DNA from: Candidatus Hydrogenedens sp. | GTDB lineage: Bacteria > Hydrogenedentota > Hydrogenedentia > Hydrogenedentales > Hydrogenedentaceae | DNA length: 63,086 bases | Assembly: GCA_049968235.1 (NCBI GenBank) | Contig: JBMFRC010000016.1 | Location: forward strand, 1 to 63,086 | Direction of reading: 5' to 3' | Part shown: positions 1 to 58,777 of the stretch, piece by piece | How the letters are laid out: every line of letters starts with the position of its first letter | Numbering within the stretch: position 1 is the stretch's first letter | Program-made: the position numbers and the translations under genes | Notes under the pieces: model-generated | What the model saw: the letters and a program-made list of their open reading frames with translations, nothing else | Databases searched by the model: none | Told to the model about the DNA's origin: nothing

Positions 1-246
1 GGAATAGTAGAAGGCGAAGGTAGTCCAGAAGGTGTAGTAGAAGGAACACCGGAAGGCGAAGGAGTAGTAGAAGGTGAAGGGTCAGTTCAGCCGAAGGAAG
101 GCGAAAATACACCGGAGGCGAATCAGGGATGTGGTTGTTTTGGTGGCAAATCGTTAGGTGATGAGGCATGGTGGAAATATTTGTTGGACTTTGTTTTAGT
201 AGGCATGCTCATACTCACCCTGAGCGGTATGCGAAGAAAGAAATAA
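1..246 (+). CDS. 3' end of a secreted/surface protein gene (5' end cut by the window edge); EGEG-type Gly/Glu linker followed by a CGC motif, a hydrophobic helix and a basic tail
   Basis: Frame 1 is open from base 1 to the TAA at 244-246. The translation ends ...EGEGSVQPKEGENTPEANQGCGCFGGKSLGDEAWWKYLLDFVLVGMLILTLSGMRRKK. This C-terminus is homologous to that of the 55044..56018 protein. Confidence 0.6.
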   Translation, partial: GIVEGEGSPEGVVEGTPEGEGVVEGEGSVQPKEGENTPEANQGCGCFGGKSLGDEAWWKYLLDFVLVGMLILTLSGMRRKK

Positions 247-604: not shown

Positions 605-1672
605 TCAGAAAAGGATACCTTCTAAAATGTTTTTATGGTCATAAATCCATCTGGCAATAGTTGTGAGGGTTTGTTCAAAAGTTTTATTAGGTTTCCATGG
701 AGATACAGTTTCAATGAGTGTGGTATCTGTTATGTAGTATGGGATGTCTCCGGGACGAGTTTGGGATTTTCGTGCAATTGGGATAGTGTTTTTTGTTATT
801 TGCTGGCATAGAGTGGTTAATTCAAGTAAGGAAAAACTCCTATTCTGTCCTCCACCTATATTAAATCTCCATTGATTTAGTTTTTTATAGTTTTTTATTT
901 GCCAGAGTATAAGATTGCATAAATCTTGAATGTCCAGTAAATCACGGACCTGCTTTCCTGTGCCGTTAAAACCAATATAAGTGAGGGGTTTTTGTGCGAT
1001 ATGATGTGCCAGCCAGAGAGCCACAACCCCCTGGTCAATTTTTCCCATTTGCCAGGGTCCAGCAATAATTCCGCAACGATTTATAATAATCGGTAGATTA
1101 TACATTTCTTTATACTCTTCCAGTATGAGTTCCACAGCCAGTTTTGTAGCACCGTAAAGGGTTCGAGTTCCTTCCAGGGGAAATTGTTCTGTGATTCCTT
1201 TTTCTGAAATGCCTGGAGGCAGGTTTCTGTCTGTGTTTAATATATATCGTGATTCGGTTTCGATGAAAGGTAAGGAATTTATGAGAGGATATGGGTAAAC
1301 TCGGCTGGTGGATAGGAATAAAAAGCCCGAATTATGTTCTTTTGCCCATTGCAGGCAGTTTAATGCCCCTGTGAGATTGGAATGAAGCAGGTATTCTGAT
1401 GAAGAGGAATAGCCAGCGAGGACAGAGGGTTCTGCACTACATTCGATAAGCCAGTCACAAGAAGATATATTTTGTATGTCGGATATATTGCGAATATCCC
1501 CATGAACAAATTCGATATTATATTTTTGTAATCGTCTTACATTAAGTTCAGAACCTCGTCGGTGAAGGTTGTCAAAAGCAATTATATGGCAATTCGGTAA
1601 ATGTTCTTTTAGAAATATGGACAAATTGGCACCGACAAAACCTGCTCCACCGGTAATTAAGATTCGTTTCAT
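605..1672 (-). CDS. NAD-dependent sugar epimerase/dehydratase (extended SDR family)
   Basis: N-terminal Rossmann motif ILITGGAGFVGANL; the length and overall pattern are typical of nucleotide-sugar epimerases such as CDP-paratose or UDP-glucose epimerase. Confidence 0.8.
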   Translation of the reverse strand: MKRILITGGAGFVGANLSIFLKEHLPNCHIIAFDNLHRRGSELNVRRLQKYNIEFVHGDIRNISDIQNISSCDWLIECSAEPSVLAGYSSSSEYLLHSNLTGALNCLQWAKEHNSGFLFLSTSRVYPYPLINSLPFIETESRYILNTDRNLPPGISEKGITEQFPLEGTRTLYGATKLAVELILEEYKEMYNLPIIINRCGIIAGPWQMGKIDQGVVALWLAHHIAQKPLTYIGFNGTGKQVRDLLDIQDLCNLILWQIKNYKKLNQWRFNIGGGQNRSFSLLELTTLCQQITKNTIPIARKSQTRPGDIPYYITDTTLIETVSPWKPNKTFEQTLTTIARWIYDHKNILEGILF

Positions 1673-1725
1673 ATATTGCTTCCGTATTACATTATGTTAT
1701 TCATATCATATTTGAAAAGAATATA

Positions 1726-2862
1726 CTATTTCATTTTTTGGAGGCACTTTTCGTAGATTTCTGAAACGATTTTTGCTTGATATTCCGGCGAAAAATTTCT
1801 AAGTGCTTTCTCGCGGGCATTATTTCCCAATTCTTTGCGATATTCGGGATATTCACATAAATTTCGTATTGCATGATACAGTGACTCGACAGTATCTTCA
1901 ATGATTATGCCATCTTTTTCGTGTTGTATAAGTTCGGGTAGTATCCCGGTATGTGTAGCGATAATAGGTATGCCCATAGCCATATATTCGCGGACGGTAC
2001 GACAGGTTCCATCGGTACCGGGAACGAGATAAACACCAATATCGAATGTATTAAGCATTGCTACATAGTTATCATCGTTCAGGTAGCCTGTAAAAATGAC
2101 ATGTTCTTCCAATCCGAGTTCACGAACGGGACGAAATGCAACTTCTTCTTGTTTTGTGCCTCTACCAACGATAATGAGATTTAACTTCCAGCCTTCCTGA
2201 ATGAGCGCATGGAGTGCGGAAAAAAGGAGTTCGTATTTGCGATGGGTTTGTATTCTTGCGACAATCCCTAAAGTTATGGAGTTTTCGGGAAGTTCCAATT
2301 TTACTTCGGGTAAAGGGCGATTGGGATTAAATCGTTGCAGGTCTATAGATAAAGGAATTAAAGGGCATTGTTCGGGGGAAAGGTTATAGTGTTCCATGTC
2401 TTGTTTCTGTGCGATGAGTGAAGGTTCGAGAATGACATCGGTTTTGGGAATTAGTGTTTTTATTTTATCTGGCAATCCTTCCCCGTAATGATTGGATCGG
2501 AATAAAATTTGATTAGCAGTTTTTATTCGTACTCCAAGTCTATGGTCATTATCCAGATGACAATGAATAATTTGCGGGGGATCTTCTTGAATAATTCTGT
2601 TTAATTTTTTTTGGTCGAGGTAATCTTTGATGATATTTCTATGTTTAGAAAGAAAGAGGTTGCGGTAAACAGGAATGTTCCAATGGAGTGCAGTGTCATA
2701 AACCCGATTATATTTGTCCTCAGGAATGCCTTTCACACTGCATCCAAAACGGATATCCCAGCCCAAATCCTTTAGTTTATTAATAAGCGTTAAAACAGGC
2801 TCCGCAGGACCTGTCCAACGATAGTTACTAAAAAGGTGTAAAATTTTGGGTTTTGATGCCAT
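1726..2862 (-). CDS. Glycosyltransferase family 4 (GT-B, retaining)
   Basis: C-terminal GT4 signature GIPIIATHTGILPELIQHEKDGIIIE (an EX7E-like motif); 378 aa. Confidence 0.75.
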   Translation of the reverse strand: MASKPKILHLFSNYRWTGPAEPVLTLINKLKDLGWDIRFGCSVKGIPEDKYNRVYDTALHWNIPVYRNLFLSKHRNIIKDYLDQKKLNRIIQEDPPQIIHCHLDNDHRLGVRIKTANQILFRSNHYGEGLPDKIKTLIPKTDVILEPSLIAQKQDMEHYNLSPEQCPLIPLSIDLQRFNPNRPLPEVKLELPENSITLGIVARIQTHRKYELLFSALHALIQEGWKLNLIIVGRGTKQEEVAFRPVRELGLEEHVIFTGYLNDDNYVAMLNTFDIGVYLVPGTDGTCRTVREYMAMGIPIIATHTGILPELIQHEKDGIIIEDTVESLYHAIRNLCEYPEYRKELGNNAREKALRNFSPEYQAKIVSEIYEKCLQKMK

Positions 2863-2874
2863 ACAAGGGAAAGA

Positions 2875-5800
2875 TTATGTTGTTGATTCTACAAGTTCGT
2901 TCAATTTTATAGAGACTATTTCAGAAACACCTCGTTCTTGCTGAGTTATACCGATGATTGCATCGGCACATGCCATTGTTTGTTTATTATGGGTAATAAT
3001 AATAAATTGAGATTTTTTTGAGAATTCCTTGACGATTTCAAGGAAACGACAAATATTTGTATCATCCAGCGGTGCATCAACTTCATCAAGAATACAAAAA
3101 GGACTGGGTTTTGTCTGAAAGATAGCAAAAAGTAAGGCAATAGCAGTGAGGGCCTGTTCTCCACCGGAGAGTTGATGAATAGATTGAGGCTTTTTACCGG
3201 GGGGGCGTGCTTCAATTTCAATGCCCGATTCCAGAGGGTCATTTTCATCAATGAGGTATATACGAGCATGCCCACCATTGAAAAGACGACGGAAAAATTC
3301 CTTAAAATATTCTCCGACCTGTCTGAAAGTTTGTGTAAACATTGAGAGGACAGTTTCATCAATTCGACGAATAACTTCCTGTAATTTCTCTTTTGCCTGA
3401 TTAAGGTCTTTTTGCTGAGCGGAGAGGAAATCATATCGTTTCAATAATTCTTCATATTCTTCCACTGCCATAGGGTTTACGGTGCCCATTCGTTGTATTT
3501 GTTGGCGGATTTGTTCTATTTGCTCGTTTCGCTCGGTTTCATCCCATTCATCTGCACCTACTTCACCCGAGGAAATAGTATCCAAATCGATTTGATATTC
3601 TTCTGAAATACGCTGACGAAGAAATTCCGATTGCTGACGAATCTGTGAGAACTCTAATTCTAATTGATGGAGTTGCTCTTGTTCCTGTTGAACTTGCTGA
3701 CGGAGTTCTTTCATCATTCGGGATGTTTCTTCAAAAGATTGGATGTGTTGTTGATATTGTTCTTGAACCTGAACCAATTCTTGTTGTGCTTTTTGTCGTA
3801 GTTCATTGAATTGCGACAATTGTGTTCGTGTTTCAGAGATTTTTTCATGCAGAGATTGTATCTTATTTAGAAAGTCCTGTATTTGTTGCTTTGATTCATC
3901 CGAAGAGGATGTAATTCGATTGTATTCATTTTTAAGACGAAGAATATTGTTGTCAATTTCTTGAATCTGAGATAGAACCCCTGTAAATTGAACTTTTAGT
4001 TCTGTTAAATTTTGTCGTTTTTGTTCCATCAATTCCCGCAATTCTTGTAATTGTTGTTGTTTCTGTTGTATTTCACTTTTTAATTGTGTGTCATCCTGTA
4101 ATATGAGAGAGGCTTCTTCGTCGGTTTTTGTCATTTCATTTTTAATTTTCTCTATTTCGTTACTGAGGTCGGTTTGAGAACCTTGAAGTTGCTGTAGTAA
4201 TTGATGCACTTGTTCTTGCTGGGCAATGACACGAGCATGTTCTATTTGTATTTGCTGAACCTGATTTAATATTAAATTCTTTTGATTTTGAAGATGAAGG
4301 ATTTGTTGATGTAACGAAGAAGATTGTTCTTTAAGTTGAGAAGAATGATTTCGATTCTTTTGTATTTCTTGTTGTGTTTTTTTCTGTTGTTTCTGTAATT
4401 CCTCGATTTCAGAGACCCGGGAGAGGAGTCCGCGGGCTTCATGTTTTGTCCGACCACCGGTAACTGCTCCCGATTGATTGATGATTTCACCTTCCATCGT
4501 TACCAGTTTTGGGTAATGTTGATGATGTTTCGCTATTTGTATTGCATCATCAATGGTTTGAACCAAATAAGTGTTATATAACAGGTATTGGAGGGCAGGA
4601 AGTATTTCTTTATCAGCATATACGAAATGAATAGCAGGACCAATCAAGCCCGGGTATTGTTGTAATTCGGGATAGGTGTTGGTGTTTCCTGGTCGTAGTG
4701 TATCGAGAGGCAAGAAAGTAACTCTTCCTGCCCAATGTTCTTTTAAGAAGGTAATGGCTATCTTTGCAGATTCTGCTGTCTGGACAACAATATTATTTAT
4801 ATTTCCGCCCAATGCAGATTCAATGGCTAATTCATATCCGCGTTCTGTGCGGATTAAGTCCCCCACCGGTCCTAAAATCTGTTCCCCTCCTAAAATACCT
4901 TCATGCTTTGCATTCATAACTGCACGAACGCCACCCGCAAAACCTTCATATTTTTCACGAAGTTCATTCAGAGAGTTGAGTCTTGCCTCCAGTCTGCTTA
5001 AGTTTTCACGGAGTTCCTGATGTTTCACTTCCTCCTGAGATATTGCTTGCTCTATTTTTTGTAGGTTCTGCTGAACCTTTTCAATTTCTTCGGATAGTTG
5101 TTTAATTTCACTCTGTTTATTTTCAATTTCAAATAGAAATTTTTGTCTTTCTTGCTCTAATTTCTGATATGTTTCCTCATTATTGTGGATTATCTCTTGA
5201 ATTTCAGTAATCTGTTTCTGGAGAGTTTGTTGTTGAGATTGGAGAACCTGAATACGGGACTGAATTTGATTTTTTGAATGAATCTGTTCCAGCAGGAATT
5301 GTTGTTTTTGCTGGAGTTCTAATTCTGAGCGATGAATATATCGTAATTGTTCATCTTCTTCTTGTTTTAATCCCTGTATAATCGTTTCCAGATCCTGTAT
5401 TTGCTGGGATAATATTACTTTCTTTTGTCCTAATTGCAGGGTTTCCGATTCAATTTCCTGTAAACGTTGGAACAATGCTTCTTTTTCATCTTCAGATGAT
5501 TTCTTCCGCATATTAAGGAATTCAATTTCTTTTTGGTGAAGTCCCAACTGGGATTCGAAATGTTCTAATTTGGTTTCAACTTCGTGGAGATGTTCGCGTT
5601 TGTCCGATAATGCTTTTTCAATTTCTGACCGCTGTAAGTAATTCTGTTCTTCCTGTGCCTCCAATTGGGTAAGTTTGTCTAATTGGGTAATGTAGTTATG
5701 CTTTTTCTCGTTAAGTTCTTGTTTAAAATCATGGATTTTTTCCTGGAGTGTGTTATATAGGAACCAGGCGTTACGCACTTCCAGTTCTTTTAACTTTTGA

Positions 5801-9466: not shown

Positions 9467-10720
9467 ATGTTAAAACAAAAATCTTTATTAATGCTGTTGC
9501 TCGTAGGTTTGGTCGTTGGGCTGAGTGCTCCCAGTTTTGCAGTTCAACCACCACCTAACCCAAGTGAACTTGACTTCTGTGCTTTGTTAGATGGTGCCTA
9601 TAACCTCGTTACAAATGAATTTGCATTCTTGTTAGAGTTATTAGGTGATGACGCCGCATTATTAACAACGGTGCAATGTTCTGTTTGTGATATCAATGGC
9701 GGAATTGTAGATAACCGGCCGACACCCAACGGAATGCTGGATGGAAATTATGAACTCCGTATCATCAAAGAATTGATTCAGAATCCAACTCAGTATGCTA
9801 GCTTGGCTTCGGGAACATTACCTGGACAAATTAAGCAGGGTGTGAATCCCACCGATGTGATTAATGCATACAACGCAAACTATCAGATGTTATATACCGA
9901 TGGAATGAATACATTCTTAAATGCAACATTACCTGCCTTATGGCCCATCTTACAACAAATGTATCCAAATGTTGTTCCTCCATTATGTACAGCTCCCAAT
10001 ACACCTCCGGGTTGTATTGATAAGTCTCTTATCGTAACATTATTCCGTAATTTGTTAATGGTTCTTGCCGGTTTTGCAACAGAAGGTGATGATGCCAGTG
10101 CTGGGAGTGTTGCTACCGTTGCAGGTTTATTGGCGTTATGCGATGTGTTAAGTCAGGGTTCTTGTCTTGTAAATGATATTGTAACTGACCCAAATGCTTA
10201 TGAGAGATTACCTGAATTTTTATCCAAAGATGGTGATGCGGATGGTGACGGTTATACCAACTATGCAGAATACCAGGCATTTGCTAATGTGAAAGGTCCG
10301 GGTGATGCATTTATCGCCGCAGTATTGGACCCGTCGGTTTATCCGGGATATGTACCTCCTGCGGGAGACAAAGTAAATATTTATCCGAGTGGAACAATTA
10401 AAGTAGAAGAAGGCGGAACTATCGACTTGAGAGTAGAAGTAAAAAATATGGTCGGAACTGTAGGTTATCAATGGACCCATAATGGCGAAGACCTCGGAGT
10501 TACTCAACCACGTTTGATAATTCGGAATGTGACCAATGCAGATGCGGGGAATTATCAATGTGTAGTTACGGATGAAGCCAAAGGTACCTATGCATCATCA
10601 GTAGTTGTTGTTCAAATACTTCCCGAAGGGACAATTCCTGTCGCAGGCGGTCTCGGTCTTGCAGTAATTACAGCACTTTGCTCCGCAGGTGGTGTAATGG
10701 TTATTCGTCGCAGAAAGTAA
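9467..10720 (+). CDS. Secreted protein with an N-terminal signal peptide, a C-terminal Ig-like domain and a PEP-CTERM-like membrane-anchor tail
   Basis: GGGAGGAG ribosome-binding site at 9452-9459. Signal peptide MLKQKSLLMLLLVGLVVGLSAPSFA. Ig-like stretch GNYQCVVTDEAKGTYASSVVVV. The tail is LPEGTIPVAGGLGLAVITALCSAGGVMVIRRRK. Confidence 0.7.
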   Translation: MLKQKSLLMLLLVGLVVGLSAPSFAVQPPPNPSELDFCALLDGAYNLVTNEFAFLLELLGDDAALLTTVQCSVCDINGGIVDNRPTPNGMLDGNYELRIIKELIQNPTQYASLASGTLPGQIKQGVNPTDVINAYNANYQMLYTDGMNTFLNATLPALWPILQQMYPNVVPPLCTAPNTPPGCIDKSLIVTLFRNLLMVLAGFATEGDDASAGSVATVAGLLALCDVLSQGSCLVNDIVTDPNAYERLPEFLSKDGDADGDGYTNYAEYQAFANVKGPGDAFIAAVLDPSVYPGYVPPAGDKVNIYPSGTIKVEEGGTIDLRVEVKNMVGTVGYQWTHNGEDLGVTQPRLIIRNVTNADAGNYQCVVTDEAKGTYASSVVVVQILPEGTIPVAGGLGLAVITALCSAGGVMVIRRRK

Positions 10721-26549: not shown

Positions 26550-28259
26550 ATGAATACTCACATTAAAGAAGTTATACAAAATGTTTTAGAAAATAAGTGG
26601 AGATATAATTTACAAAATATTTCCATACGAAATACTGTTCCTATAGATATTACGGACAAATTAATTGCCTTTACACTTTGTGTAGTATTTATTGCTTTTG
26701 CTTTATGGATAGGCATTGTTAGTTCCCGACCTTTTCAATGGCCCTTTAATTGGGATACCCTTCGCGATATAGGAATTGCACAAACCTTCCTTGATAAGAC
26801 TTACCCTGAAGACCCTATATTAAAAGGAGAAATTAATTGGTATAACCCCCTAACGGGATTTGTAATTGCCCTATCCAGCAAAATACTCGATACATCATTA
26901 CCCAAAACATGTATGCAAATAGGTCCCTTTTTGCAGTTATTGCTACCTATTGCAGTGATGTTATTAGCATGGAATTGTTGGGGACCATGGGCAGGTTTCT
27001 TATCTATAACATACTTTATTTTTGCAAGACACCCTTATCTACCCGAGTGGATGTATTCCTCTTATTCCCCCTGGCTAATAGCACCCCAGTGGGGGAAAAC
27101 ATTTTTTTTCTTAACAATTCTTATGTTTATTCTTTATGCTGAGAAAAAGAAACACCTATTTTCTATTTTATGTGGAGTGTTTTTAGGGCTGGGATTTCTC
27201 ACACACACGGCAGTTTTAATAGAAGCGGGATTATTTATTGCTTTGTATTCCCTTGTTAAGATTATCCAGTTTTCTCGTTCTTCCCTGAGACAGGAACTTA
27301 TACAATACCTCAAAGGAATAGGTATCCTTCTGGGGATAGCACTTTTTTTGAGCAGTCCTTATTGGTTACCCATTTTTATTCGTTATCGATTCATTATTCG
27401 CAATCCCTATCCATCTCTTTATGTAACCTCAGCCCTTGAATTGAAAAATCTTCCAACAACTTTGCTAAAAAGTGCTAATGGTTTTACTGTGATAGGTGTT
27501 ATCTCTATTTTATTTTTCTTTATCCACAGAAAAAAACAAGAATTATGGTGGTTGAGGATATGGACAGTAGTGGTCCTTCTTTTAGTATTTCAACAGATAA
27601 TATCTCAGTGTTTATACTATTATGGCTTTGCATTTCCAGCATTTTTTCCTCCCCATCACACCTTTATGTCCGTTCATGCGTTAATAGGATTCTGGTTTGT
27701 TTACGGCTCTCTTCAGGTAGCAGGGGTGATTGTTCATTTTTTCCAACGCAGAAACATTCATTACTGGCTTCAGAAGGGAATATACCTTGTTGTTTTATCT
27801 TTGATATTCCTTATGGGTGTGACTACTTTGGTAAGACCTATTCCACCACTACACGAAATCTATCGCGGAATGGAAGTAAATAAATTGGCACATGATGTTG
27901 CTCGATTTGATAACGTTTATAAATGGATATTAAATAATACAACACCTCAGGACTTATTTTTATGTGATGAGGTTACAGGAATCTGGACAGTTATGCCTGC
28001 AGGTAGAAAACTGGTTTATACCATGATGTTTTACATGAACCCTTATTGTGAAATAGGCTACCGTATAGGATTCCTTAATTATATATGGAATCCACTCCGA
28101 GAACAGCGGTATAGTGATTTTCTTGCTCTCTGTCAACAAAAAAAACTGAACTATATTCTTTTACGGCATACGGATGAAAATAAACCTCTTCTGGATAAAA
28201 TGAAAAAAATACATAAATGTTATGAAGACCATCAGGTTGTTATATACAAAATTCCATAA
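26550..28259 (+). CDS. Polytopic integral membrane protein (>=10 predicted transmembrane segments); possible GT-C-type glycosyltransferase
   Basis: 569 aa, dominated by hydrophobic helices, with a roughly 150-aa hydrophilic C-terminal domain. Convergent with the GT-C-like operon. Confidence 0.5.
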   Translation: MNTHIKEVIQNVLENKWRYNLQNISIRNTVPIDITDKLIAFTLCVVFIAFALWIGIVSSRPFQWPFNWDTLRDIGIAQTFLDKTYPEDPILKGEINWYNPLTGFVIALSSKILDTSLPKTCMQIGPFLQLLLPIAVMLLAWNCWGPWAGFLSITYFIFARHPYLPEWMYSSYSPWLIAPQWGKTFFFLTILMFILYAEKKKHLFSILCGVFLGLGFLTHTAVLIEAGLFIALYSLVKIIQFSRSSLRQELIQYLKGIGILLGIALFLSSPYWLPIFIRYRFIIRNPYPSLYVTSALELKNLPTTLLKSANGFTVIGVISILFFFIHRKKQELWWLRIWTVVVLLLVFQQIISQCLYYYGFAFPAFFPPHHTFMSVHALIGFWFVYGSLQVAGVIVHFFQRRNIHYWLQKGIYLVVLSLIFLMGVTTLVRPIPPLHEIYRGMEVNKLAHDVARFDNVYKWILNNTTPQDLFLCDEVTGIWTVMPAGRKLVYTMMFYMNPYCEIGYRIGFLNYIWNPLREQRYSDFLALCQQKKLNYILLRHTDENKPLLDKMKKIHKCYEDHQVVIYKIP

Positions 28260-28261
28260 TT

Positions 28262-30520
28262 TTATTTTAGTAAAGAATAGTCAATATCTTTTTTTAAATG
28301 TTCTGTTGGGATTTGTAAATCTTCCGCTCTATGAAAAGCCTTTTCCACCGCATTTTTATCGCAGGTAATTGCAGAAGGGTGATAAATAAAGTGCCAGCCA
28401 ATGGGTAAAACAGGCTGGAGATGAAATAGCAAGGACCAGCACCAATTAGCAGTTGTAACATTGGATAATCTATCGCAGGTTTGTCCCCAGAACCACCAGA
28501 ATAATGGTTCTTTGTTACATTCTTTAATCAATTGTGCGAAATAGGAGAATGCTCCTTCGTAATCCTGTTCTGCAAAACATTTTACGCCATTCCAGAAAAG
28601 GACCGATAGGTCTTCTTGTGATGTGGCATAATATAGTAATATGCATTCTTTCTCAAAATTTACTTTTGTTGAAAACCCTTCATAAAATTGAACTATCTGA
28701 TTTGGGTTCTGTTCCCATGCGTGCTTTAATAAGTACTCTGCTTGGTTATATTTTTTTAATCGTGCCAACTCCATAGCACACCGAACAAAATGGAAACCTG
28801 TGCGGTCATGATCATAGCGGTGTCTCTTATAAAATATACCTGATGCAAGGCTTGCTTCACTAAATAATTTTCTCGTTAATTTTTTTATGTCTAAATTTAT
28901 TGTGAATATGTTTTCACATTTCAATTTTTGTAAAGAGGAAATTTGATATAGATATATTTTCTGTTCGCCGGGTAAGGTATAAACAAAGAAGTAAAATCCA
29001 TATTGTTTCAATACCGAAGGAAATGTATTTAAGCCTGTTCCATATACATCCGGGATAACAATCCATATCTTCGTTTTTTCTATCTGGTTTGTACCTAAAC
29101 TATTAAAATAAACCTGTGTTAGATTTGCCAATCCCTCCTCAGTATATGCATCTGTTACAGGCAAGGAAATATCTTCATTATTGAGCCTAAAAATGGGCAT
29201 CCAGAAGGGGTCGCGAATTATTACCAAGTCGTGCATCCCTTGATTTTGGGAAATAATTCTCCCTACTCCTTTCCAGTCCATTCGCCATGAACTTTGCGAC
29301 ATAATTCCTATTGGATAAAGAAGCACAACTATAAGAAGGACAATAGCAAACCATTTAATCCATTTTCTTGATTGTGAAAGGAAATAGGCAATCCCAATGA
29401 AATGTAATGGAATGAGAAAGACAATATACCTCGTTGTAAAAACAGGTGGTCCAAGTCGTGCAAGGCAGAACAGTAAAAAAGGAGGGATAGTAAATAAGAC
29501 AAGGAAGAAAAAAGAAATGTGAAATGTATTATCTCTTCGTATCCACCTACGAATAGTTTCATATACCAAACCCAACAAACCTAACAAAGAAAAAAGAACA
29601 AGAGCCAACTCAAAACCTTTTTGAGAGTAATGTAAAATAGACCCAATAATGGAGGACGAATACTGCCACGGATGTGATATACCTATCGGGCAAATTCCCC
29701 CTTTCCCAACAATATTAAGAACAAAAGGAAATGATAATAACTCCCAGAATGAAGGTTTAAGATAATATCGGTGTAATTCACCGGGTTGAGGTGGAATGGT
29801 TAAAATCCAACTGAACCATGGGATTAAAAATATGGAATGTATAATAATTAGAGCAATCGATTTTCTTATATATCTTTTTCCCTTATATGGCACAGCAATT
29901 AAAAGTAAGAACTCTGTAGCCCATATAATTACCCCGATATGGTGTGTCCATAACAACATTTGATTGACAAGTATCCAGAATATAAGGGTTCGATTATTGG
30001 ACATGTTATCCATCACCTTCATGAACAAGAAAAACGAACCCCAGACCAGAAAAAGGTATGCTATATACATCCGTGCTTCCTGTCCAATAAAGATAAGAGC
30101 AGGGGAGAGAGTTATCCCTATGCAGACGAGAGTTTTCGTACCGGCAGGTAACTTACCTTGCCGTTCCAGTTTGTTTGTAATAACCCAGAACATAAGATAG
30201 AAACCTATCCAGATACAGATACTTAACAAACGAATAGAAACAATCCCTGTTCCTGAGTATCTTCCCCAGAGGTATTGACATAAAGGAAACAAAATGCCAC
30301 CGTAAGGATATGTATTCCTTTGTTCTTTTATGAAATGAAATACGGAATGGAGATTTAGATTGGCTATGCATGCATATTCTTCCAGCGAAATGGACTCTTG
30401 AGAAATTCTATATAGACGGAGTAATATCCCGACAATTAGAAAAAAAAGAAAGAAAAAAACGTCATAGTTGATGTTTTGTTTTGAATTTAACAGTATTTTG
30501 TTCTTACTTAGAAGAATCAT
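28262..30520 (-). CDS. GT-C fold membrane glycosyltransferase (ArnT/PMT-like, GT39/GT83-type) with a C-terminal soluble TPR-like domain
   Basis: 752 aa. Transmembrane helix 1 is followed by the acidic loop motif SLEEYACI, at the position of the DE/DExxY motif of ArnT/PMT enzymes. About 11 transmembrane helices precede a 350-aa soluble domain. Confidence 0.55.
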   Translation of the reverse strand: MILLSKNKILLNSKQNINYDVFFFLFFLIVGILLRLYRISQESISLEEYACIANLNLHSVFHFIKEQRNTYPYGGILFPLCQYLWGRYSGTGIVSIRLLSICIWIGFYLMFWVITNKLERQGKLPAGTKTLVCIGITLSPALIFIGQEARMYIAYLFLVWGSFFLFMKVMDNMSNNRTLIFWILVNQMLLWTHHIGVIIWATEFLLLIAVPYKGKRYIRKSIALIIIHSIFLIPWFSWILTIPPQPGELHRYYLKPSFWELLSFPFVLNIVGKGGICPIGISHPWQYSSSIIGSILHYSQKGFELALVLFSLLGLLGLVYETIRRWIRRDNTFHISFFFLVLFTIPPFLLFCLARLGPPVFTTRYIVFLIPLHFIGIAYFLSQSRKWIKWFAIVLLIVVLLYPIGIMSQSSWRMDWKGVGRIISQNQGMHDLVIIRDPFWMPIFRLNNEDISLPVTDAYTEEGLANLTQVYFNSLGTNQIEKTKIWIVIPDVYGTGLNTFPSVLKQYGFYFFVYTLPGEQKIYLYQISSLQKLKCENIFTINLDIKKLTRKLFSEASLASGIFYKRHRYDHDRTGFHFVRCAMELARLKKYNQAEYLLKHAWEQNPNQIVQFYEGFSTKVNFEKECILLYYATSQEDLSVLFWNGVKCFAEQDYEGAFSYFAQLIKECNKEPLFWWFWGQTCDRLSNVTTANWCWSLLFHLQPVLPIGWHFIYHPSAITCDKNAVEKAFHRAEDLQIPTEHLKKDIDYSLLK

Positions 30521-32675
30521 ACAATTTGTATCGCTCTATATTTTCTCGAACATTTCTGAAATCCCATGCATATCTCCAATGCTTGTTATAACCTTTGATA
30601 GAATTATCCTGGGGTACAGCCAGAGTTATTAAAAAAGGTTCCATAGATGGGTTCTCTGCCCGATAAAGCCCACAAAATGAAGTTTCATATCCCTTCGGTA
30701 TCTCAATCCCTTTCCACGCCCCACGAACCCATATAATAGGTTCCTGATTATTAAAGACAATCTCATTTCTTGGTTTGATAGTAGATGCAGAGTAAACTAA
30801 GAAATAGATACTTATCCGATGAGGTATGTTTCCCTTAATATACCAATGGAGGAGTGGGTTTAAGGGTTCTGAAAAATCTACTGCGTAATATGTATTATCA
30901 TATCTGGAATAAATAGAAAAGTCTTTTGCTAATTCAAAATCAGCACGTAGAAACTCAAAAGGGGTTTCCATAATAGGCAGTTCGGATACTTTTTCGAAAC
31001 GGGGTAAGGTTTTTGAAGGTTGGAATAAGATGCTCGTTCCAGTATCAATTTGATTGAGATTTACCTTCTCCCAATTCAATTCGCGATAGGAGGTGATAAG
31101 TTTTAATAACTGATGTTTCTGCCATAAAATTAAAGTTGCATATAGTAATGAACAGGAACAGACTACAATTATCAGAACAATAACACCGTTACGCAGTCCG
31201 ATTAAAATACTTTTTCCGGACAATTCTTTTCGATACATACCGTAAAGGGTTGTAAATAATTCATACATAAACAGAATGACAATTCCGTATAAAATAGGGG
31301 TCAGGTGAACTACATGCCGATATTCAAACAAGATGGAGGGATAACCTAATAGATAACCTAAAACTCCGGAGATTAGTATCCCTTTCCAGATATTTTTCAC
31401 ACTCACAATAAAAATTAATCCCAATAATATCCACGGTCCGATATAAGCAAGAGGAATATCCCAATAATAAAAATGGTCAGTGAAAAAAAAGGACCAGGAT
31501 GGTCGGTTAAATTCCGGATGGTTTTGCTTTTGTTCCCTTGTAAAGTTATAAAGTGTCGAGAAACAATTACTACAAGCGGATAGGATGCGACCCCATAAGT
31601 CCGCAGGAAAATGCCATGCAACAGACCTGAAATAAGCCCTACCTGCAGTCCCGTATGCTGGTGATAAATAGTTATCAAAGGGTTCTTCAAAACCTGTTCG
31701 TCGTGCAAAGGACGCAATTGTTGAATGGACAAGCATATCATTGGGTTCATAAACAAGCCGATAGGAAGAATTACCACCCATTAAGGTTTGTTCGATGGTG
31801 CTTGCAAGACCCTGCACCAATGAATGGCTGGATACCGCCCCTTTATCCTCAGCAATTGCTAACAATATAGGATAGCCTGATGCAAGAAAAGATAGCAGAT
31901 AAAGAACGATACAACCTATACTCGCATGAATTTTCTTATAATATAAAAATTTAGCACCAATGATACCTATAAACACCAGCCCTAAAAAGAATAAAATAAG
32001 TACATCCTGGCGAAATCCCAATCCAATGCCTATTACGAAACCTAATACAGATGAAACAATTGTAGTTCTCCATACATACTTATCCGAAAAATAGAACATG
32101 CTTGCTGAAATTGCAAGGAATAGCATAAAAAAAGTAGTTTTTGAATAATCTCGGATAGATGGCAGGAGAAAAAGAAGAGAGGGGGAATTCATGACCAGGC
32201 AAGTTGTTATAAAAGCAGGTACGCTCCCTCCAAATATATACAAAGTAATGTAAACCGCTATTACACTAAGAACGAAAACTATCCCGGCATATATTTTTAA
32301 TACATCCCAGTTTATTCCAAACCATTGCCATAATATACCTATTGTATATATTAGATAGCGATGTGTCCTTACAAAACGGCTGTTATCCCATGTGCCCCAA
32401 TCTTTGGGTAGGTCAGAAAATTGCAGAGAATTTGTTTTCTGTTCCAGAAACAATCGAATGTTTTTTGGATAAGGTGCTTTAGGTGTCGTGAATCCCTGTC
32501 CACAAGCGATAGATATGGCATTTACCAGCCATTCCTGTTCGAACCGATAGTCCCGTCCAATCATTTTGACACGGATTGTTAAATGTTCATAAACAATCCA
32601 TGAAGAGAAAACAACAATGAGTAAAAAAAGGATTAAATCAATAATAATTCTCTTCATTGTATCGTTTTTGTTCAC
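30504..32675 (-). CDS. Polytopic membrane protein, GT-C-like, of unknown specificity
   Basis: 723 aa with more than 12 hydrophobic helices and a C-terminal soluble domain. It overlaps both neighbours (17 nt and 4 nt), indicating translational coupling. Confidence 0.5.
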   Translation of the reverse strand: MNKNDTMKRIIIDLILFLLIVVFSSWIVYEHLTIRVKMIGRDYRFEQEWLVNAISIACGQGFTTPKAPYPKNIRLFLEQKTNSLQFSDLPKDWGTWDNSRFVRTHRYLIYTIGILWQWFGINWDVLKIYAGIVFVLSVIAVYITLYIFGGSVPAFITTCLVMNSPSLLFLLPSIRDYSKTTFFMLFLAISASMFYFSDKYVWRTTIVSSVLGFVIGIGLGFRQDVLILFFLGLVFIGIIGAKFLYYKKIHASIGCIVLYLLSFLASGYPILLAIAEDKGAVSSHSLVQGLASTIEQTLMGGNSSYRLVYEPNDMLVHSTIASFARRTGFEEPFDNYLSPAYGTAGRAYFRSVAWHFPADLWGRILSACSNCFSTLYNFTREQKQNHPEFNRPSWSFFFTDHFYYWDIPLAYIGPWILLGLIFIVSVKNIWKGILISGVLGYLLGYPSILFEYRHVVHLTPILYGIVILFMYELFTTLYGMYRKELSGKSILIGLRNGVIVLIIVVCSCSLLYATLILWQKHQLLKLITSYRELNWEKVNLNQIDTGTSILFQPSKTLPRFEKVSELPIMETPFEFLRADFELAKDFSIYSRYDNTYYAVDFSEPLNPLLHWYIKGNIPHRISIYFLVYSASTIKPRNEIVFNNQEPIIWVRGAWKGIEIPKGYETSFCGLYRAENPSMEPFLITLAVPQDNSIKGYNKHWRYAWDFRNVRENIERYKLYDSSK

Positions 32676-34291: not shown

Positions 34292-35296
34292 TTATATATC
34301 TCGCTTCCATTTTTCACGAACGATAAACGCAGGAATACGGTATAAAGCGAGGAAAGAACGCATCGCAAATTCACCGATAATAGAGAGTATTGCTACAATA
34401 ATCAGCAACGAAAAAACGATAACATTCAAAATTAGCCCGGGGGTAATCTCCTTCATAATGCTATAATCCAGGAAGAAGGCAGAAAGGATACGGAGAAAGA
34501 ACAAAAATCCGAAGATAACACATAATATCGCCATCCATTGGAACAAACGTGGAGACATGCGTACCAGATTGTCCATGTTGTATTGCCAGAGACGCCAGAA
34601 GGTATATCCAGATTTCCCATAAGGTCGTGGAAAATGTTGAACGGGCACCTCCACACATCGTCCCGCACGCGAAACCACATCCGCAGTACGGAAAATATTA
34701 AAAGGACCGTATTCAAAAGCACGAACAAGGTCTGCTCGATAAATTTTATAAGTACAGCCGAAATCGGTCAGCGGGATACCGGAAGATTTCCGCATAATCC
34801 AATTAGCAACCTTTGATGGAATGCGTCGGAGAATACTATCCTGTCGTTGTATGCGACACCCGCTTACAACATCAAAACCCTCATCATATTTCTCTATTAA
34901 CTTAGGGACATCTTCAGGTGCTAATTGTAAATCACTATCTATAAGTATAATTGCTTTACCGCGTGCATCCATAATACCTGCGGTAACGCCTGCCTGTTGT
35001 CCTGAATTGCGATATAAATTAATTACTGAAAAAACCCGTTCATCCTCCTTGTAAATTTCTTTTAATATTTCCCATGTTCTGTCGGTACTCCCATCATTTA
35101 CAAATATTATTTCATATGACCTTCCTGTTTTTTCTAAGGTATCTTTTAGACGGCGATGAAATTCACGGATACTTCGTTCTTCATAATAACAACTGATAAC
35201 TATAGAAAACTCTATATCTGAATGCTTTGTATCTATAGCCATCCCTTTATACCTCATTCCCTGATATAGATAGTTCATTTCTCTTGGCAATGGCAA
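34292..35296 (-). CDS. GT2 polyprenyl-phosphate sugar synthase (ArnC/DPM1/GtrB-like)
   Basis: FSIVISCYYEE...EIIFVNDGSTDRT (GT-A DxD region) plus two C-terminal transmembrane helices. The real start may be the internal Met near 35245, which would abut the upstream stop. Confidence 0.8.
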   Translation of the reverse strand: MPLPREMNYLYQGMRYKGMAIDTKHSDIEFSIVISCYYEERSIREFHRRLKDTLEKTGRSYEIIFVNDGSTDRTWEILKEIYKEDERVFSVINLYRNSGQQAGVTAGIMDARGKAIILIDSDLQLAPEDVPKLIEKYDEGFDVVSGCRIQRQDSILRRIPSKVANWIMRKSSGIPLTDFGCTYKIYRADLVRAFEYGPFNIFRTADVVSRAGRCVEVPVQHFPRPYGKSGYTFWRLWQYNMDNLVRMSPRLFQWMAILCVIFGFLFFLRILSAFFLDYSIMKEITPGLILNVIVFSLLIIVAILSIIGEFAMRSFLALYRIPAFIVREKWKRDI

Positions 35297-54324: not shown

Positions 54325-54585
54325 CTATTTTATTTCTAATGGAATTAGAGACCGTTCCCCAAAAACTCTTTCCTGTACACAACAAATATCTATTAAGTCT
54401 TCAGGGGTTATATAATCTAATAAGTTTTCAACAGGAATAATTTCTCGCTTCTCTCCCTCTTTCTGGAATACGATTACAGCATGCTGTTCTTTTCCATATT
54501 TCCCAATAAGAACAACTACACCCTTTCGTCCATCCTTTAACTGGACCATGCGTAAAATTGCAGAACCCTGCCTTTTCCAATTCAT
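54325..54585 (-). CDS. Small hypothetical protein (86 aa)
   Basis: ORF sits in a tight operon (4-nt gap upstream, 36-nt gap downstream). No recognisable motif. Confidence 0.4.
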   Translation of the reverse strand: MNWKRQGSAILRMVQLKDGRKGVVVLIGKYGKEQHAVIVFQKEGEKREIIPVENLLDYITPEDLIDICCVQERVFGERSLIPLEIK

Positions 54586-54588
54586 TTG

Positions 54589-54954
54589 TTAAAATAAAAA
54601 TTCTGGTTCTAATATAGGCTGAAAGTTTACTTCTTTATCGGTAACAGGGAAAGTAACCGCTTCAAATACTCCTGTTCCCGTTCTCATAACTGCGCGGGCG
54701 GTACCTAAAACAGGAACAACACCGAACAAATAACCAAAAGGCTTCCCTTCCTTCAATTTTTTATCAAAGGTCAGGGGTATTTCAGCCCATCCGAACATAA
54801 TATTAGATAAACCTCTCCCTAACTTTGTCAGTGATTTTTCAAATCGTGTCGGTTTAGGTAAATCCTCATCCGGATTATATTCCTGTGCAAAAACGAGGAT
54901 GGGTTGAACAAATAAAGAGAACAAAAGCATCAACAAGATTACTTTCTTATACAT
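54589..54954 (-). CDS. Small secreted protein; possible exosortase-system-associated TIGR04073-like family
   Basis: Signal peptide MYKKVILLMLLFSLFVQPILVFA, then KLGRGLSNIMFGWAEIPLT. My recollection of the family signature (RG..N...GW.EIP) is tentative. Confidence 0.3.
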   Translation of the reverse strand: MYKKVILLMLLFSLFVQPILVFAQEYNPDEDLPKPTRFEKSLTKLGRGLSNIMFGWAEIPLTFDKKLKEGKPFGYLFGVVPVLGTARAVMRTGTGVFEAVTFPVTDKEVNFQPILEPEFLF

Positions 54955-55043
54955 ATTTATATCTCCATCAAATCATAAATTTCTATTGTATTATAAATAG
55001 TCTATCAGATTTTATCAAAATTGTCAAGAAATATTTCAACTTT

Positions 55044-56018
55044 CTATTTATTTTTTGTCATTCCGGAACAAAAACCTAAAACAACAAAACTCATTCCTAA
55101 CACACATAGGTTTCCTAATAATTGTTTAATTCCACCCAGTCCCTTCTGCTGATTACATCCACACGAGAATGGAAATGGATTCTCTCCTTCTCCCTCGCCT
55201 TCACCTTCTCCCTCTATAGAACCTTCTCCTTCTTGAGGTGTAACCGGTGTATATTGAACATCTAAAGAAACCTTTTCATTTGCAATTATATTCACCTGGG
55301 TAGAAGCAGGCTTTGTCCAATTAGGAACATCATTAAACTCTATTGTATATGTGCCAATATCCTTTGTTACGGTAATCCCACTTGCACGGTAAATCGTTTC
55401 TCCTGCAAATCTCCACATTGCACCTGCTTTTACTGCATTCTGTGGTGAAATATTTACGACCAAATTTCCTTGCTCGCGGGAATAACTGGCAGATATATCG
55501 TTAATAATATCTGCCTGTAAATCGACCATTATCTTTCCAGGGACATTCCATCCGGATACTTTCTTAAATTCTATTTCATATTCATCTACTGGCACATCCG
55601 TTTCTACTTCTCCACTATTTTTCCATGTTTCCTGTCCTGCCCTCCGCCATTGTGCTCCTCCATCTATAACTTCATTTGGGAAAAGGGTAATTCTTAATGA
55701 ACCTTTTAACCGTTCATATATACCCACTTCATTTGTTGTTTTCCCTTTGATAAGTGATACCTGCTTGCTGACAGGTGCTCTCCACCCTTTTATTTCACCC
55801 TTAAATTCAATGGTATAAATCCCCTGTGCCAGAACTAACATCTTACCGGAGGAATACCACTCACTATTGAATTCTTTGATCTTCCAGCCAGATCCTAAAC
55901 TATTTATCTCTTCAGGGTGCAATGTTACTGTTAAAACAGCACTCTCCGTTTGTGCATTACCTCTACTATTTATAAACAGAAAACTTATCAGAAAAACTAT
56001 CAATAAATATCGTTTCAT
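55044..56018 (-). CDS. Secreted protein with three ~80-aa internal repeats, an EGEGEGEGE linker and a C-terminal CGC-motif / transmembrane / basic-tail module
   Basis: Signal peptide MKRYLLIVFLISFLFINSRGNA. Three repeats share W..G....SG......YTIEF....GW..P. The C-terminus is ...GEGEGEGEGENPFPFSCGCNQQKGLGGIKQLLGNLCVLGMSFVVLGFCSGMTKNK. Confidence 0.7.
   Translation of the reverse strand: MKRYLLIVFLISFLFINSRGNAQTESAVLTVTLHPEEINSLGSGWKIKEFNSEWYSSGKMLVLAQGIYTIEFKGEIKGWRAPVSKQVSLIKGKTTNEVGIYERLKGSLRITLFPNEVIDGGAQWRRAGQETWKNSGEVETDVPVDEYEIEFKKVSGWNVPGKIMVDLQADIINDISASYSREQGNLVVNISPQNAVKAGAMWRFAGETIYRASGITVTKDIGTYTIEFNDVPNWTKPASTQVNIIANEKVSLDVQYTPVTPQEGEGSIEGEGEGEGEGENPFPFSCGCNQQKGLGGIKQLLGNLCVLGMSFVVLGFCSGMTKNK
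55180..55245 (-). repeat. Coding low-complexity (GAG-GGN)n repeat encoding the EGEGEG linker
   Basis: The plus strand reads ctcgccttcaccttctccctc... Compare the GVVEGEG-type repeats at 1-100 in the partial first gene. Confidence 0.7.
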
Positions 56019-57544: not shown

Positions 57545-58777
57545 ATGAGTTCTAATCCGCAACCACTACCCATGAAACAAAAAAGAATTCGAAAAAGAAG
57601 CCTTCTTCCATGGCTAATTGGAATTTTATTCTGGGGAATATTCCTCCTCTGGTATCAATATACTCCCAGTCAGGATACCATAGAATTTTTTTATTCCTGC
57701 GGTTTGTATCGTGCAAACACGCTTATCTTCTCACTTATACAACAAACAACAACCCATTCTATTGCTCTATGGTTTTTTCCATTATCTATCCTTTTGTTCC
57801 TTATTTTAGGAATTGCAAACTGGATTTATGTCCGAAAAAAACAAAACAAATCCCATTTCTGGGGAATATTTTGGTTTGTGAAATGGATATTTATCTTAAG
57901 TGGATTTTTACTTGTATCATATCTATTTCTTTGGGGAGCAGGCTATCAACGAAAACCTATCGAAGAAAAATTAAAACTTGAAATGGTCAACCCCGAAGAG
58001 ACTGAAATAAGACAAATAATGGAAGAATTACTTGTTATCATTAATAGCGATAATATTCCGCGAGAACAACGAGATCCAGAACAGAGTATTCAAAAAATCT
58101 CAAAATCTATGCAAACAATTATATCGGAGTGGGATGGAGTACCGATATATCTACCTGCACGAGTTCGCAAAACCCCGCCCGGACTTTTCCTTTTTAATAG
58201 TACTTCGGGTATGTGTTTTCCTTTTACTTTAGAACCTCATGTTGATGGTGCTCTGCCCCCACATGCTTTCGTTGCTACTTCTGCTCATGAATTAGCACAC
58301 ATTGCGGGTATTTGTGGGGAAGCGGAAGCCAGTTTTGTAGGTTATGTAAGTGCATTAAATACGGATGACCCTTTTGCCCGTTATTCAAGTGCTTTAGACA
58401 TTTATGAACGGTTGGCTTCTTTTCTGCCAGGAGAGGAAAGAAAGAAAGCCATCGAACAGTTGCCTCCGGAGGCTCAACAGGACTTAAAAGAAGAACGTGA
58501 AATTGCAAATAAATATCGCGTTAAATGGTTTTCGGAAATATCATGGAAAGCCTATGATAAATATTTGAAAACTCAAGGAGTCAAAGAAGGAGTTCGTGAT
58601 TACGGGAGAGTCACAAATCTTCTGATAGCAGGATTACGAAAAGGAATTATTAAATTACCAAAACTTCCTGAAAACAATTTTATCGATAAAGAAAGAACAA
58701 TCTCACCTCAGGAAGAACCTATTGAACAGTTAGAAAAGACACCCGAAAAATCAGAAACAGATAATCCCAATATATAA
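57545..58777 (+). CDS. Membrane-anchored putative zinc metallopeptidase (HExxH; DUF3810-like)
   Basis: Three N-terminal transmembrane helices. HELAH within SAHELAHIAGICGEAEASFVGYV. The family assignment is from memory. Confidence 0.5.
   Translation: MSSNPQPLPMKQKRIRKRSLLPWLIGILFWGIFLLWYQYTPSQDTIEFFYSCGLYRANTLIFSLIQQTTTHSIALWFFPLSILLFLILGIANWIYVRKKQNKSHFWGIFWFVKWIFILSGFLLVSYLFLWGAGYQRKPIEEKLKLEMVNPEETEIRQIMEELLVIINSDNIPREQRDPEQSIQKISKSMQTIISEWDGVPIYLPARVRKTPPGLFLFNSTSGMCFPFTLEPHVDGALPPHAFVATSAHELAHIAGICGEAEASFVGYVSALNTDDPFARYSSALDIYERLASFLPGEERKKAIEQLPPEAQQDLKEEREIANKYRVKWFSEISWKAYDKYLKTQGVKEGVRDYGRVTNLLIAGLRKGIIKLPKLPENNFIDKERTISPQEEPIEQLEKTPEKSETDNPNI

Follow-up and report, generated by a model that had tools for sequence, protein, structure and literature searches.

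The window analysed here is a stretch of 63,086 nucleotides (nt) with a G+C content of 37%, positions 1 to 63,086 of contig JBMFRC010000016.1 from a metagenome-assembled genome (MAG) of Candidatus Hydrogenedens sp. (NCBI assembly GCA_049968235.1). It contains two genes whose products end in a similar C-terminal tail, a candidate protein-sorting signal, in which the motif Cys-Gly-Cys (CGC), a hydrophobic helix and a basic end follow a Glu-Gly (EG)-rich linker. One of the genes (type 1) is complete and the other (type 2) is cut by the left edge of the contig. In a mechanical scan of all open reading frames (ORFs) of the window, a C-terminal Cys motif with a helix and a basic end was found only in these two.

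The type 1 gene, identified by its ORF and translation, lies on the minus strand at 55044..56018 and encodes a predicted exported surface protein of 324 amino acids (aa), in which a signal peptide, three tandem beta-sandwich domains, the EG-rich linker and the CGC tail stand in this order, the translated C-terminus being ...EGEGSIEGEGEGEGEGENPFPFSCGCNQQKGLGGIKQLLGNLCVLGMSFVVLGFCSGMTKNK. The signal peptide (residues 1–23, MKRYLLIVFLISFLFINSRGNAQ; 55950..56018, minus strand), with a cleavage site predicted from the sequence, was modelled by AlphaFold as a helix at residues 2–17 followed by a low-confidence segment. In the model built on the alignment of type 1 orthologues, the passenger (residues 25–262; 55233..55946, minus strand) had a predicted local distance difference test (pLDDT) score above 90, residues 263–299 were disordered, and a terminal helix spanned residues 295–321. 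The three domains of the passenger are immunoglobulin-like (Ig-like) beta-sandwiches, for which Foldseek returned Ig-like stalk domains of pilins, adhesins and the Bacillus anthracis TIE protein, and the model as a whole has the look that would be expected of a surface-displayed protein. No Pfam or NCBIfam family matched the passenger.

The EG-rich linker of type 1 (PQEGEGSIEGEGEGEGEGENPFPFS region, residues 265–285; 55164..55226, minus strand) reads EGEGSIEGEGEGEGEGE, has a pLDDT below 50 and is kept in the orthologues. It is followed by Cys-Gly-Cys (residues 286–288; 55155..55163, minus strand; DNA pattern match at 55155..55208). The remaining residues 289–324 (55047..55154, minus strand) were divided on the basis of the anchor alignment described below and the AlphaFold helix into a polar spacer NQQKGLGGIKQL, an L-G-N helix-start motif, the hydrophobic helix LCVLGMSFVVLGFCSGM and the basic end TKNK, followed by the stop codon (55044..55046, minus strand). 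Written out, the tail is NPFPFS-CGC-NQQKGLGGIKQLLGNLCVLGMSFVVLGFCSGM-TKNK.

Twelve orthologues of type 1 were found with identities of 42–99%, from Hydrogenedens-like assemblies wherever the source gives a name. Linker, helix and basic end were retained in all 12, and CGC was present in 11 of the 13 type 1 orthologue tails examined, with one CSC and one TCKTCG as exceptions. In a look-up, the exact 324-aa protein was absent from the assembly records; a protein with 99% identity to it has been recorded as P0001. Around the type 1 gene, promoter-like sites were no commoner than in shuffled sequence, and the terminator scan found none; one promoter-like site with a score of 11/12 is located at 55018..54990 (minus strand), between the type 1 gene and the downstream gene of family TIGR04073.

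The type 2 gene is represented by its 3′-end (1..246, plus strand), which codes for 81 aa comprising an EG-rich linker and a CGC tail, with CGC at 130..138, an L-L-D helix-start motif ending at 189, RRKK at 232..243 and the stop codon at 244..246. The translated C-terminus is ...EGEGVVEGEGSVQPKEGENTPEANQGCGCFGGKSLGDEAWWKYLLDFVLVGMLILTLSGMRRKK, and the tail, written out as NQG-CGC-FGGKSLGDEAWWKYLLDFVLVGMLILTLSGM-RRKK, includes the longer motif GCGC. The fragment has been deposited as a partial hypothetical protein (P0016) of a Candidatus Hydrogenedens sp. MAG, and its nearest tails were those of P0019, L035 and L131b. Extension beyond the left edge was attempted through orthologues of the epimerase gene at 605..1672; synteny broke in these loci, which contained neither a type 2 orthologue nor tails.

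A sequence-only reading of the window had aligned the two tails, quoted exactly and correctly placed behind EG-rich linkers according to the ORF translations, and had derived a shared pattern from them. The first part of this pattern, CGC-x3-K-x-LG, is literal, whereas the second, LL-x2-h-VLGM-x4-L-x-SGM, requires a one-residue shift and a three-residue gap. When anchored on the Asp or Asn (D/N) at the helix start, the two tails could be aligned gap-free (LG-N-LCVLG-M and LL-D-FVLVG-M), and the core of the proposed alignment, its "LL...VLGM" column, is therefore real. The best local alignment of the pair scored 40, which was matched by 0.6% of full shuffles, by 2.7% of shuffles keeping the head, helix and basic compartments, and by 9.4% of those in which CGC was also fixed. 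A hidden Markov model (HMM) built from type 1 orthologue tails only did not retrieve the type 2 tail, and an HMM from the other tails found type 1 tails only at E-values of 0.025–2.8, scoring MYXO-CTERM tails of Myxococcota no worse. As the similarity of the pair was modest and the cross-detection failing or marginal, a shared module was not provable from two tails alone, and the same figures speak for a compositional coincidence, that is, two unrelated C-terminal helices each of which happens to have a CGC. The shared module was accepted because the tails recur elsewhere, and not because of the window pair.

Recurrence and signature of the tail

The species genomes of GTDB were searched with a DNA pattern consisting of (EG)3, a gap of 4–34 nt and Cys-Gly-Cys, which resulted in at least 119 loci and at least 42 matches that share the reading frame of the EG repeat. 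Among the in-frame matches listed, about 24 were in long or edge-cut ORFs, and in 22 of these the CGC was situated 25–63 residues before the stop codon, with a hydrophobic helix and then a basic cluster behind it. One group of the 22 was Myxococcota/delta-proteobacterial. The other comprised, among the matches listed, Hydrogenedentota tails (L018, L035, L054, L060, L082, L089, L101) and very similar tails in MAGs labelled Nitrospirales or "uncultured bacterium" (L041, L046, L075, L079, L122). Three tested tails of the Myxococcota group scored 18.5, 21.6 and 16.4 bits against the NCBIfam MYXO-CTERM models, the first two passing their cutoffs (15.85 and 20, respectively) and the third remaining below its cutoff.

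Four of the loci with Hydrogenedentota-type tails (L041, L075, L079 and L122) have been deposited as 'uncultured Nitrospirales bacterium'. Since L041 is syntenic with L018 of the Hydrogenedentota isolate SKW61, with neighbouring genes 90% and 68% identical at the amino-acid level, its label is probably wrong, and the same probably applies to the taxonomic labels of these Nitrospirales co-assembly MAGs in general.

Further tails were obtained by a second pattern scan with (EG)4 in JGI metagenomes. The metagenome contig Ga0116193_1000038 (L131; 132 kb, GC 0.38) carries two adjacent tail genes at 820..1572 and 1573..2922, the second of which has an HExxH motif (recognised by eye) and no (EG)3 run, and was recovered only by the tail HMM; the tail therefore also exists without the canonical linker, and in tandem genes. 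In six-frame ORFs of 1.65 Mb, all tail-HMM hits at E<0.01 ended 0–10 residues from the stop codon and none was internal. The motif is thus strictly C-terminal and not confined to the two window proteins.

At least two tail genes per genome were found by these biased scans in four genomes, namely the window MAG, AMR_MDS_2428 (L035, L054), OY782877.1 (L060, L089) and USDV_metabat.86 (L082, L101). After removal of the last 110 residues, 21 passenger regions formed 11 clusters unrelated by BLASTP, with sizes from 250 aa to >2386 aa and domains including GLUG, NosD/right-handed beta-helix, CARDB, TSP3 and the Ig-like triplet, and signal peptides were visible at the intact N-termini. A short C-terminal homology domain on otherwise unrelated proteins, several per genome and with signal peptides, is what the operational definition of a sorting signal (Haft) describes. 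The layout of the tails had been read from the sequence as one of sorting or anchoring type, and this reading is borne out by the strictly C-terminal position on at least 11 unrelated passenger families with signal peptides and by the conservation in orthologues.

The signature was obtained from an alignment of 28 non-redundant tails, with CGC and the final D/N preceding the helix as its two anchors. It consists of CGC, 11–21 residues, h-[G/L]-[D/N]-h-h-h-h-G (h, hydrophobic), 12–18 mostly hydrophobic residues and a Lys/Arg cluster, and has accordingly two conserved parts. CGC was present in all 28 tails, the anchor residue was Asp in 24 and Asn in four, and Gly occupied position −1 in 18 tails and position +5 in 19. 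The spacer between CGC and the helix start (11–21 residues, median 15) was polar and often aromatic, and the chain ended 18–28 residues past the D/N, with a basic end that was weak in some tails, e.g. GGASRS and SYFVKI. The D/N rule fitted 28/28 of these tails as against 1/16 Myxococcota tails. This comparison involves some circularity where the metagenome members are concerned, since the HMM by which they were classified includes the D/N feature, but none for the nine tails that lie in the window or owe their assignment to a record title.

Coincidence between the two window tails is very improbable in the light of this catalogue, in which 28 tails have the same two-part signature and spacing, and in which 22 of about 24 genuine in-frame (EG)3...CGC matches listed are C-terminal tripartite tails; with only one of the 16 Myxococcota controls fitting the D/N rule, the rule is not generic either.

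Runs of (EG)n were also observed directly before genuine MYXO-CTERM tails of Myxococcota (L015, L085, L095, L104, L229 and others), and the arrangement of an EG linker and a CGC tail is therefore common to several phyla, through shared ancestry or because the whole module has arisen convergently. A third tail subtype was seen in the high-GC delta-proteobacterial/Myxococcota contigs L028, L105, L176, L178 and L192. It starts with CGC[G/A]C, a short variable stretch, a proline (often in GDP or GNP), 0–3 residues and M-[R/K]-x-[N/G/S], continues as a Gly/Phe-rich helix, ends in a long basic stretch (RHRRRQRLY...) and is longer than the standard MYXO-CTERM.

Proposed processing of the tail and its gene neighbourhood

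On the basis of these features, the tails are probably a lineage-specific, mainly Hydrogenedentota, tripartite sorting signal of the MYXO-CTERM class, which would be lipidated and then cleaved by a protease of the CPBP family. The proteins would be exported by the Sec route with their N-terminal signal peptides, after which the C-terminal helix would hold them in the inner membrane, with the Lys/Arg end in the cytoplasm and the disordered EG linker and Cys-Gly-Cys just outside the membrane. By analogy with MYXO-CTERM, one or both cysteines may be lipidated and the helix cut off by a CPBP/Rce1-type intramembrane glutamic protease, a relative of the myxosortases, which would probably recognise the conserved h-[G/L]-[D/N]-h4-G helix start, and the passenger would be left lipid-anchored and displayed on the cell surface. 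Lipidation, cleavage, enzyme class and final location are in this way postulated by analogy with a precedent: the MYXO-CTERM signal of TraA is cleaved by MrtX in a reaction that requires the cysteines and works in E. coli (mBio 2025, PMC11980579), and the order proposed for it is lipidation, cleavage and then type II secretion to the surface (PMC11980579). It is because of this precedent that a CPBP/Rce1-type myxosortase acting after Cys lipidation is expected here. The exosortase or rhombosortase variant suggested by the sequence-only reading appears a less likely enzyme class.

Directly downstream of type 1 lies a gene for a 121-aa secreted protein (54589..54954, minus strand) of the 'exosortase system-associated' family TIGR04073 (NCBIfam 61.6 bits, cutoff 50), followed by a conserved 86-aa hypothetical protein without a family hit (54325..54585, minus strand), identified by synteny. 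The adjacency of type 1 and TIGR04073 was kept in L001–L004, L054 and L134, and the trio of type 1, TIGR04073 and the 86-aa gene was syntenic in all orthologous loci; HDOD and MFS transporter genes come next after the trio. By its name the TIGR04073 family suggests an exosortase system in the genome. The tails could accordingly be a sorting signal handled by another dedicated enzyme, such as an exosortase or rhombosortase variant or a protease of an undescribed family. Consistent with this are the constant presence of the TIGR04073 gene downstream of type 1, the failure of the tails to match any existing Cys-signal HMM, and the outcome of the search for CPBP candidates given below. TIGR04073 homologues occurred only with type 1 orthologues, none being found beside any of the other tail genes in the fetched loci, and TIGR04073 is therefore informative on the function of the 324-aa protein and not on tail processing. 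Moreover, the tails contain no PEP or GlyGly motif and gave no PEP-CTERM or GlyGly-CTERM HMM hit, and the four known Cys-containing signals are all paired with CPBP enzymes. Among the genes around the tails, in the window and in about 1.7 Mb of fetched loci, the search turned up neither an exosortase nor a rhomboid. Processing by such another enzyme is on balance improbable.

Neighbouring genes of TIGR04073, DUF3810 and PHP type were considered as general partners of the tail and rejected, since they are syntenic only with type 1 orthologues. The DUF3810 gene (57545..58777, plus strand) is divergent and two genes from type 1; its product, with three N-terminal helices and an HEXXH motif (SAHELAHIAG), is a putative membrane metalloprotease, and the gene was syntenic in the orthologous loci and absent near the other tail genes.

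Several results weigh against a MYXO-CTERM-like sorting signal. The neighbourhoods of tail genes were screened for processing enzymes by hydrophobicity, by a filter for the motifs EExxxR and HxxxN, and by Pfam on every polytopic neighbour, and neither the window nor the fetched loci yielded a CPBP protease or another candidate for the sorting enzyme; the polytopic neighbours were a Na+/H+ antiporter, a 7TM-HD receptor, CNNM, an FtsX/MacB-type permease, SdpI and several proteins without a family hit. The type 1 tail is tied to the other tails only marginally by sequence and has Asn where most have Asp. The catalogue is biased, as nearly all members were found through patterns requiring an (EG)3–4 linker, and only L131b, type 2 and P0019 are without such a run. 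An exhaustive HMMER profile search of 1.84 billion protein representatives gave only four hits at E≤0.001, of which two were orthologues, one (P0019) was a related fragment and one a repeat protein matched spuriously; here the 47-position profile is too short for the database size, and the number of hits is no gauge of family size. A word-indexed protein search with a tail-only profile returned, from 12 candidates, only the window's own fragment, and a word index is therefore unusable for a 45-aa domain.

The outcome of the enzyme search, together with the weak basic ends of some tails, is also what would be seen if the tail were a permanent, uncleaved anchor in the inner membrane. A signal peptide, a passenger, a linker, a single helix and a positive-inside end suffice for a type I membrane protein, the Cys pair of which would then serve in acylation, disulfide formation or metal binding near the membrane surface. 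A conserved D/N, the Gly at +5 and an invariant CGC on unrelated passengers are, in contrast, typical of processed signals, and the adhesin-like passengers of 1000 to >2300 aa (beta-helix, CARDB, GLUG) suggest surface display, so that a permanent anchor is possible and rather doubtful. Also unlikely is an independent sorting system of Hydrogenedentota and relatives with an enzyme of its own that would not be recognisable as a myxosortase, belonging either to a CPBP subfamily that has diverged far or to an unrelated type of intramembrane protease. If true, recognition would have two parts, a lipidated Cys-Gly-Cys outside the membrane and an Asp-Gly helix start inside it, and the system would be a new signal-enzyme pair beside sortase, exosortase, rhombosortase and myxosortase.

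To our knowledge, only uncultured lineages of Hydrogenedentota are known, and the construction of their cell surface is largely unstudied. A MYXO-CTERM-like sorting signal in Hydrogenedentota would add a further phylum to those in which Cys-containing signals linked to CPBP enzymes occur. The tail HMM would let annotators flag surface adhesin-like and enzyme-like proteins now called "hypothetical", including giants of >2300 aa. The Asp/Gly helix-start motif offers a handle on the recognition of clients by intramembrane sorting proteases, and the tail supplies a phylogenetic profile for finding its cognate enzyme.

Other possible envelope genes of the window

A 417-aa secreted Ig-domain protein encoded at 9467..10720 (plus strand) ends in a different tripartite tail, ILPEGTIPVAGGLGLAVITALCSAGGVMVIRRRK, with sub-threshold NCBIfam scores to GVDTG_CTERM (16.8, cutoff 29) and Rumino_NPXTG (15, cutoff 23.5). 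This tail may be a second anchoring signal of the genome, LPxTG-like or otherwise uncatalogued. A gene at 946..2202 of L244 corresponds to it in size, Ig_3 domain and syntenic position.

Three large proteins of 569, 752 and 723 aa are encoded at 26550..28259 (plus strand), 28262..30520 (minus strand) and 30504..32675 (minus strand), respectively. They are polytopic, with 9–10 predicted helices, and gave no Pfam or NCBIfam hit. Nearby are a GT2-like gene at 34292..35296, assigned by sequence reading only, and other envelope-type genes, and further off is a Glycos_transf_1-type gene at 1726..2862, assigned through its syntenic counterpart in L244. The three polytopic proteins could belong to an uncharacterised family of GT-C-like glycosyltransferases or polymerases.

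Comparison with known sorting signals

In total, 20 tails (the two of the window and 18 others) were compared with the models of NCBIfam release 20 at E≤10. Of the 18 others, 16 had no match of any kind, and the MYXO-CTERM HMM cutoffs (20 or 15.85 bits) were not reached by any tail, 19 of the 20 giving no hit and L204 scoring 15.0 bits. This L204, a metagenome tail with GDP, was sub-threshold both to GC_trans_RRR (15.0, cutoff 15.85) and to JDVT-CTERM (11.9 bits, cutoff 27). The type 2 fragment reached 12.7 bits at the C-terminal end of a MYXO-CTERM-anchored NCBIfam family, and L166 had one irrelevant weak match to a V-type ATP synthase subunit model. From Pfam came a single irrelevant hit, below threshold. 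The PEP-CTERM (TIGR02595) and GlyGly-CTERM (TIGR03501) models gave no hit for Hydrogenedentota-type tails at the same E-value. The tails are outside the Pfam and NCBIfam models, none of which reached its cutoff on them, and the sequence-only reading has also held in this respect. A literature search found no sorting signal described for Hydrogenedentota and nothing relevant on TIGR04073, only papers on myxosortases being pertinent.

The CGC motif itself had been thought to match no signal that could be named, which is incorrect, since GCGC is the generic motif of MYXO-CTERM (10.1101/2023.06.07.544157; PMC11980579), and genuine MYXO-CTERM tails of Myxococcota behind (EG)n linkers were caught by the same DNA-pattern scan. 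According to 10.1101/2023.06.07.544157, MYXO-, JDVT-, Synerg- and CGP-CTERM are four Cys-containing tripartite signals predicted to be substrates of CPBP/Rce1-type proteases. MYXO-CTERM (TIGR03901 / TIGR03382; enzymes MrtX, MrtC and MrtP) resembles the present tails in its tripartite layout at the extreme C-terminus, in its invariant Cys, commonly within GCGC as in type 2, and in having many clients per genome on unrelated passengers, which are not encoded beside the enzyme. A further likeness is the disordered linker upstream, together with the length of the spacer, about 15 residues, in front of the helix; in TraA, a disordered region precedes the signal and about 15 residues separate Cys-Cys from the helix (PMC11980579), and the EG linker and the spacer are therefore not distinctive of the present tails. 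As to the differences, MYXO-CTERM has been described as free of charged residues in the helix region, whereas the present tails carry D/N at the helix start, within the conserved h-[G/L]-[D/N]-h4-G, and remain below the HMM cutoffs. Their basic end is Lys-rich in the low-GC genomes, and they are mainly from Hydrogenedentota, whereas MYXO-CTERM belongs to Myxococcota or Bradymonadales, in genomes with a myxosortase gene (core model NF040914).

JDVT-CTERM (NF033191 / NF033192; enzyme MrtJ) is likewise tripartite and contains Cys, and a conserved Asp goes with its helix. It has, however, a single Cys and a DP inside the helix nine residues on, in contrast to the two Cys and the D/N 11–21 residues after CGC in the present tails, and usually one client per genome beside the protease MrtJ, where the present tails have several clients per genome; a CPBP gene was not found beside the tail gene in any of about 30 loci. 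CGP-CTERM of Thermococcales and Synerg-CTERM of Synergistetes are, similarly to the present tails, lineage-restricted, Cys-containing and tripartite, and are predicted CPBP substrates. Both are shorter, and neither HMM was hit by the present tails; CGP-CTERM has Cys-Gly-Pro immediately before the helix, and Synerg-CTERM an invariant Pro within it.

The PEP-CTERM/exosortase system (TIGR02595) resembles the present tails in having a tripartite signal that a large number of secreted proteins carry, frequently after a low-complexity linker, and its accessory family TIGR04073 is represented in the gene adjoining type 1. Its signature is Pro-Glu-Pro, whereas the present tails are cysteine-based and without a PEP motif, and the other tail genes are without TIGR04073. 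The GlyGly-CTERM signal of rhombosortase has in turn Gly-Gly directly before the helix, a motif not present in these tails.

The concept of a Cys-containing tripartite sorting signal is not new, and a specialist in protein sorting would not be surprised by the tail. Of the proposal that it is an undescribed sorting signal, the part concerning its position outside current models stands, while as a type of signal the tail is best read as a variant of the known Cys-containing MYXO-CTERM class. Distinctive of the present tails are the Asp/Asn-Gly motif at the helix start, scores that do not reach the curated HMM cutoffs, and the phylum in which they occur.

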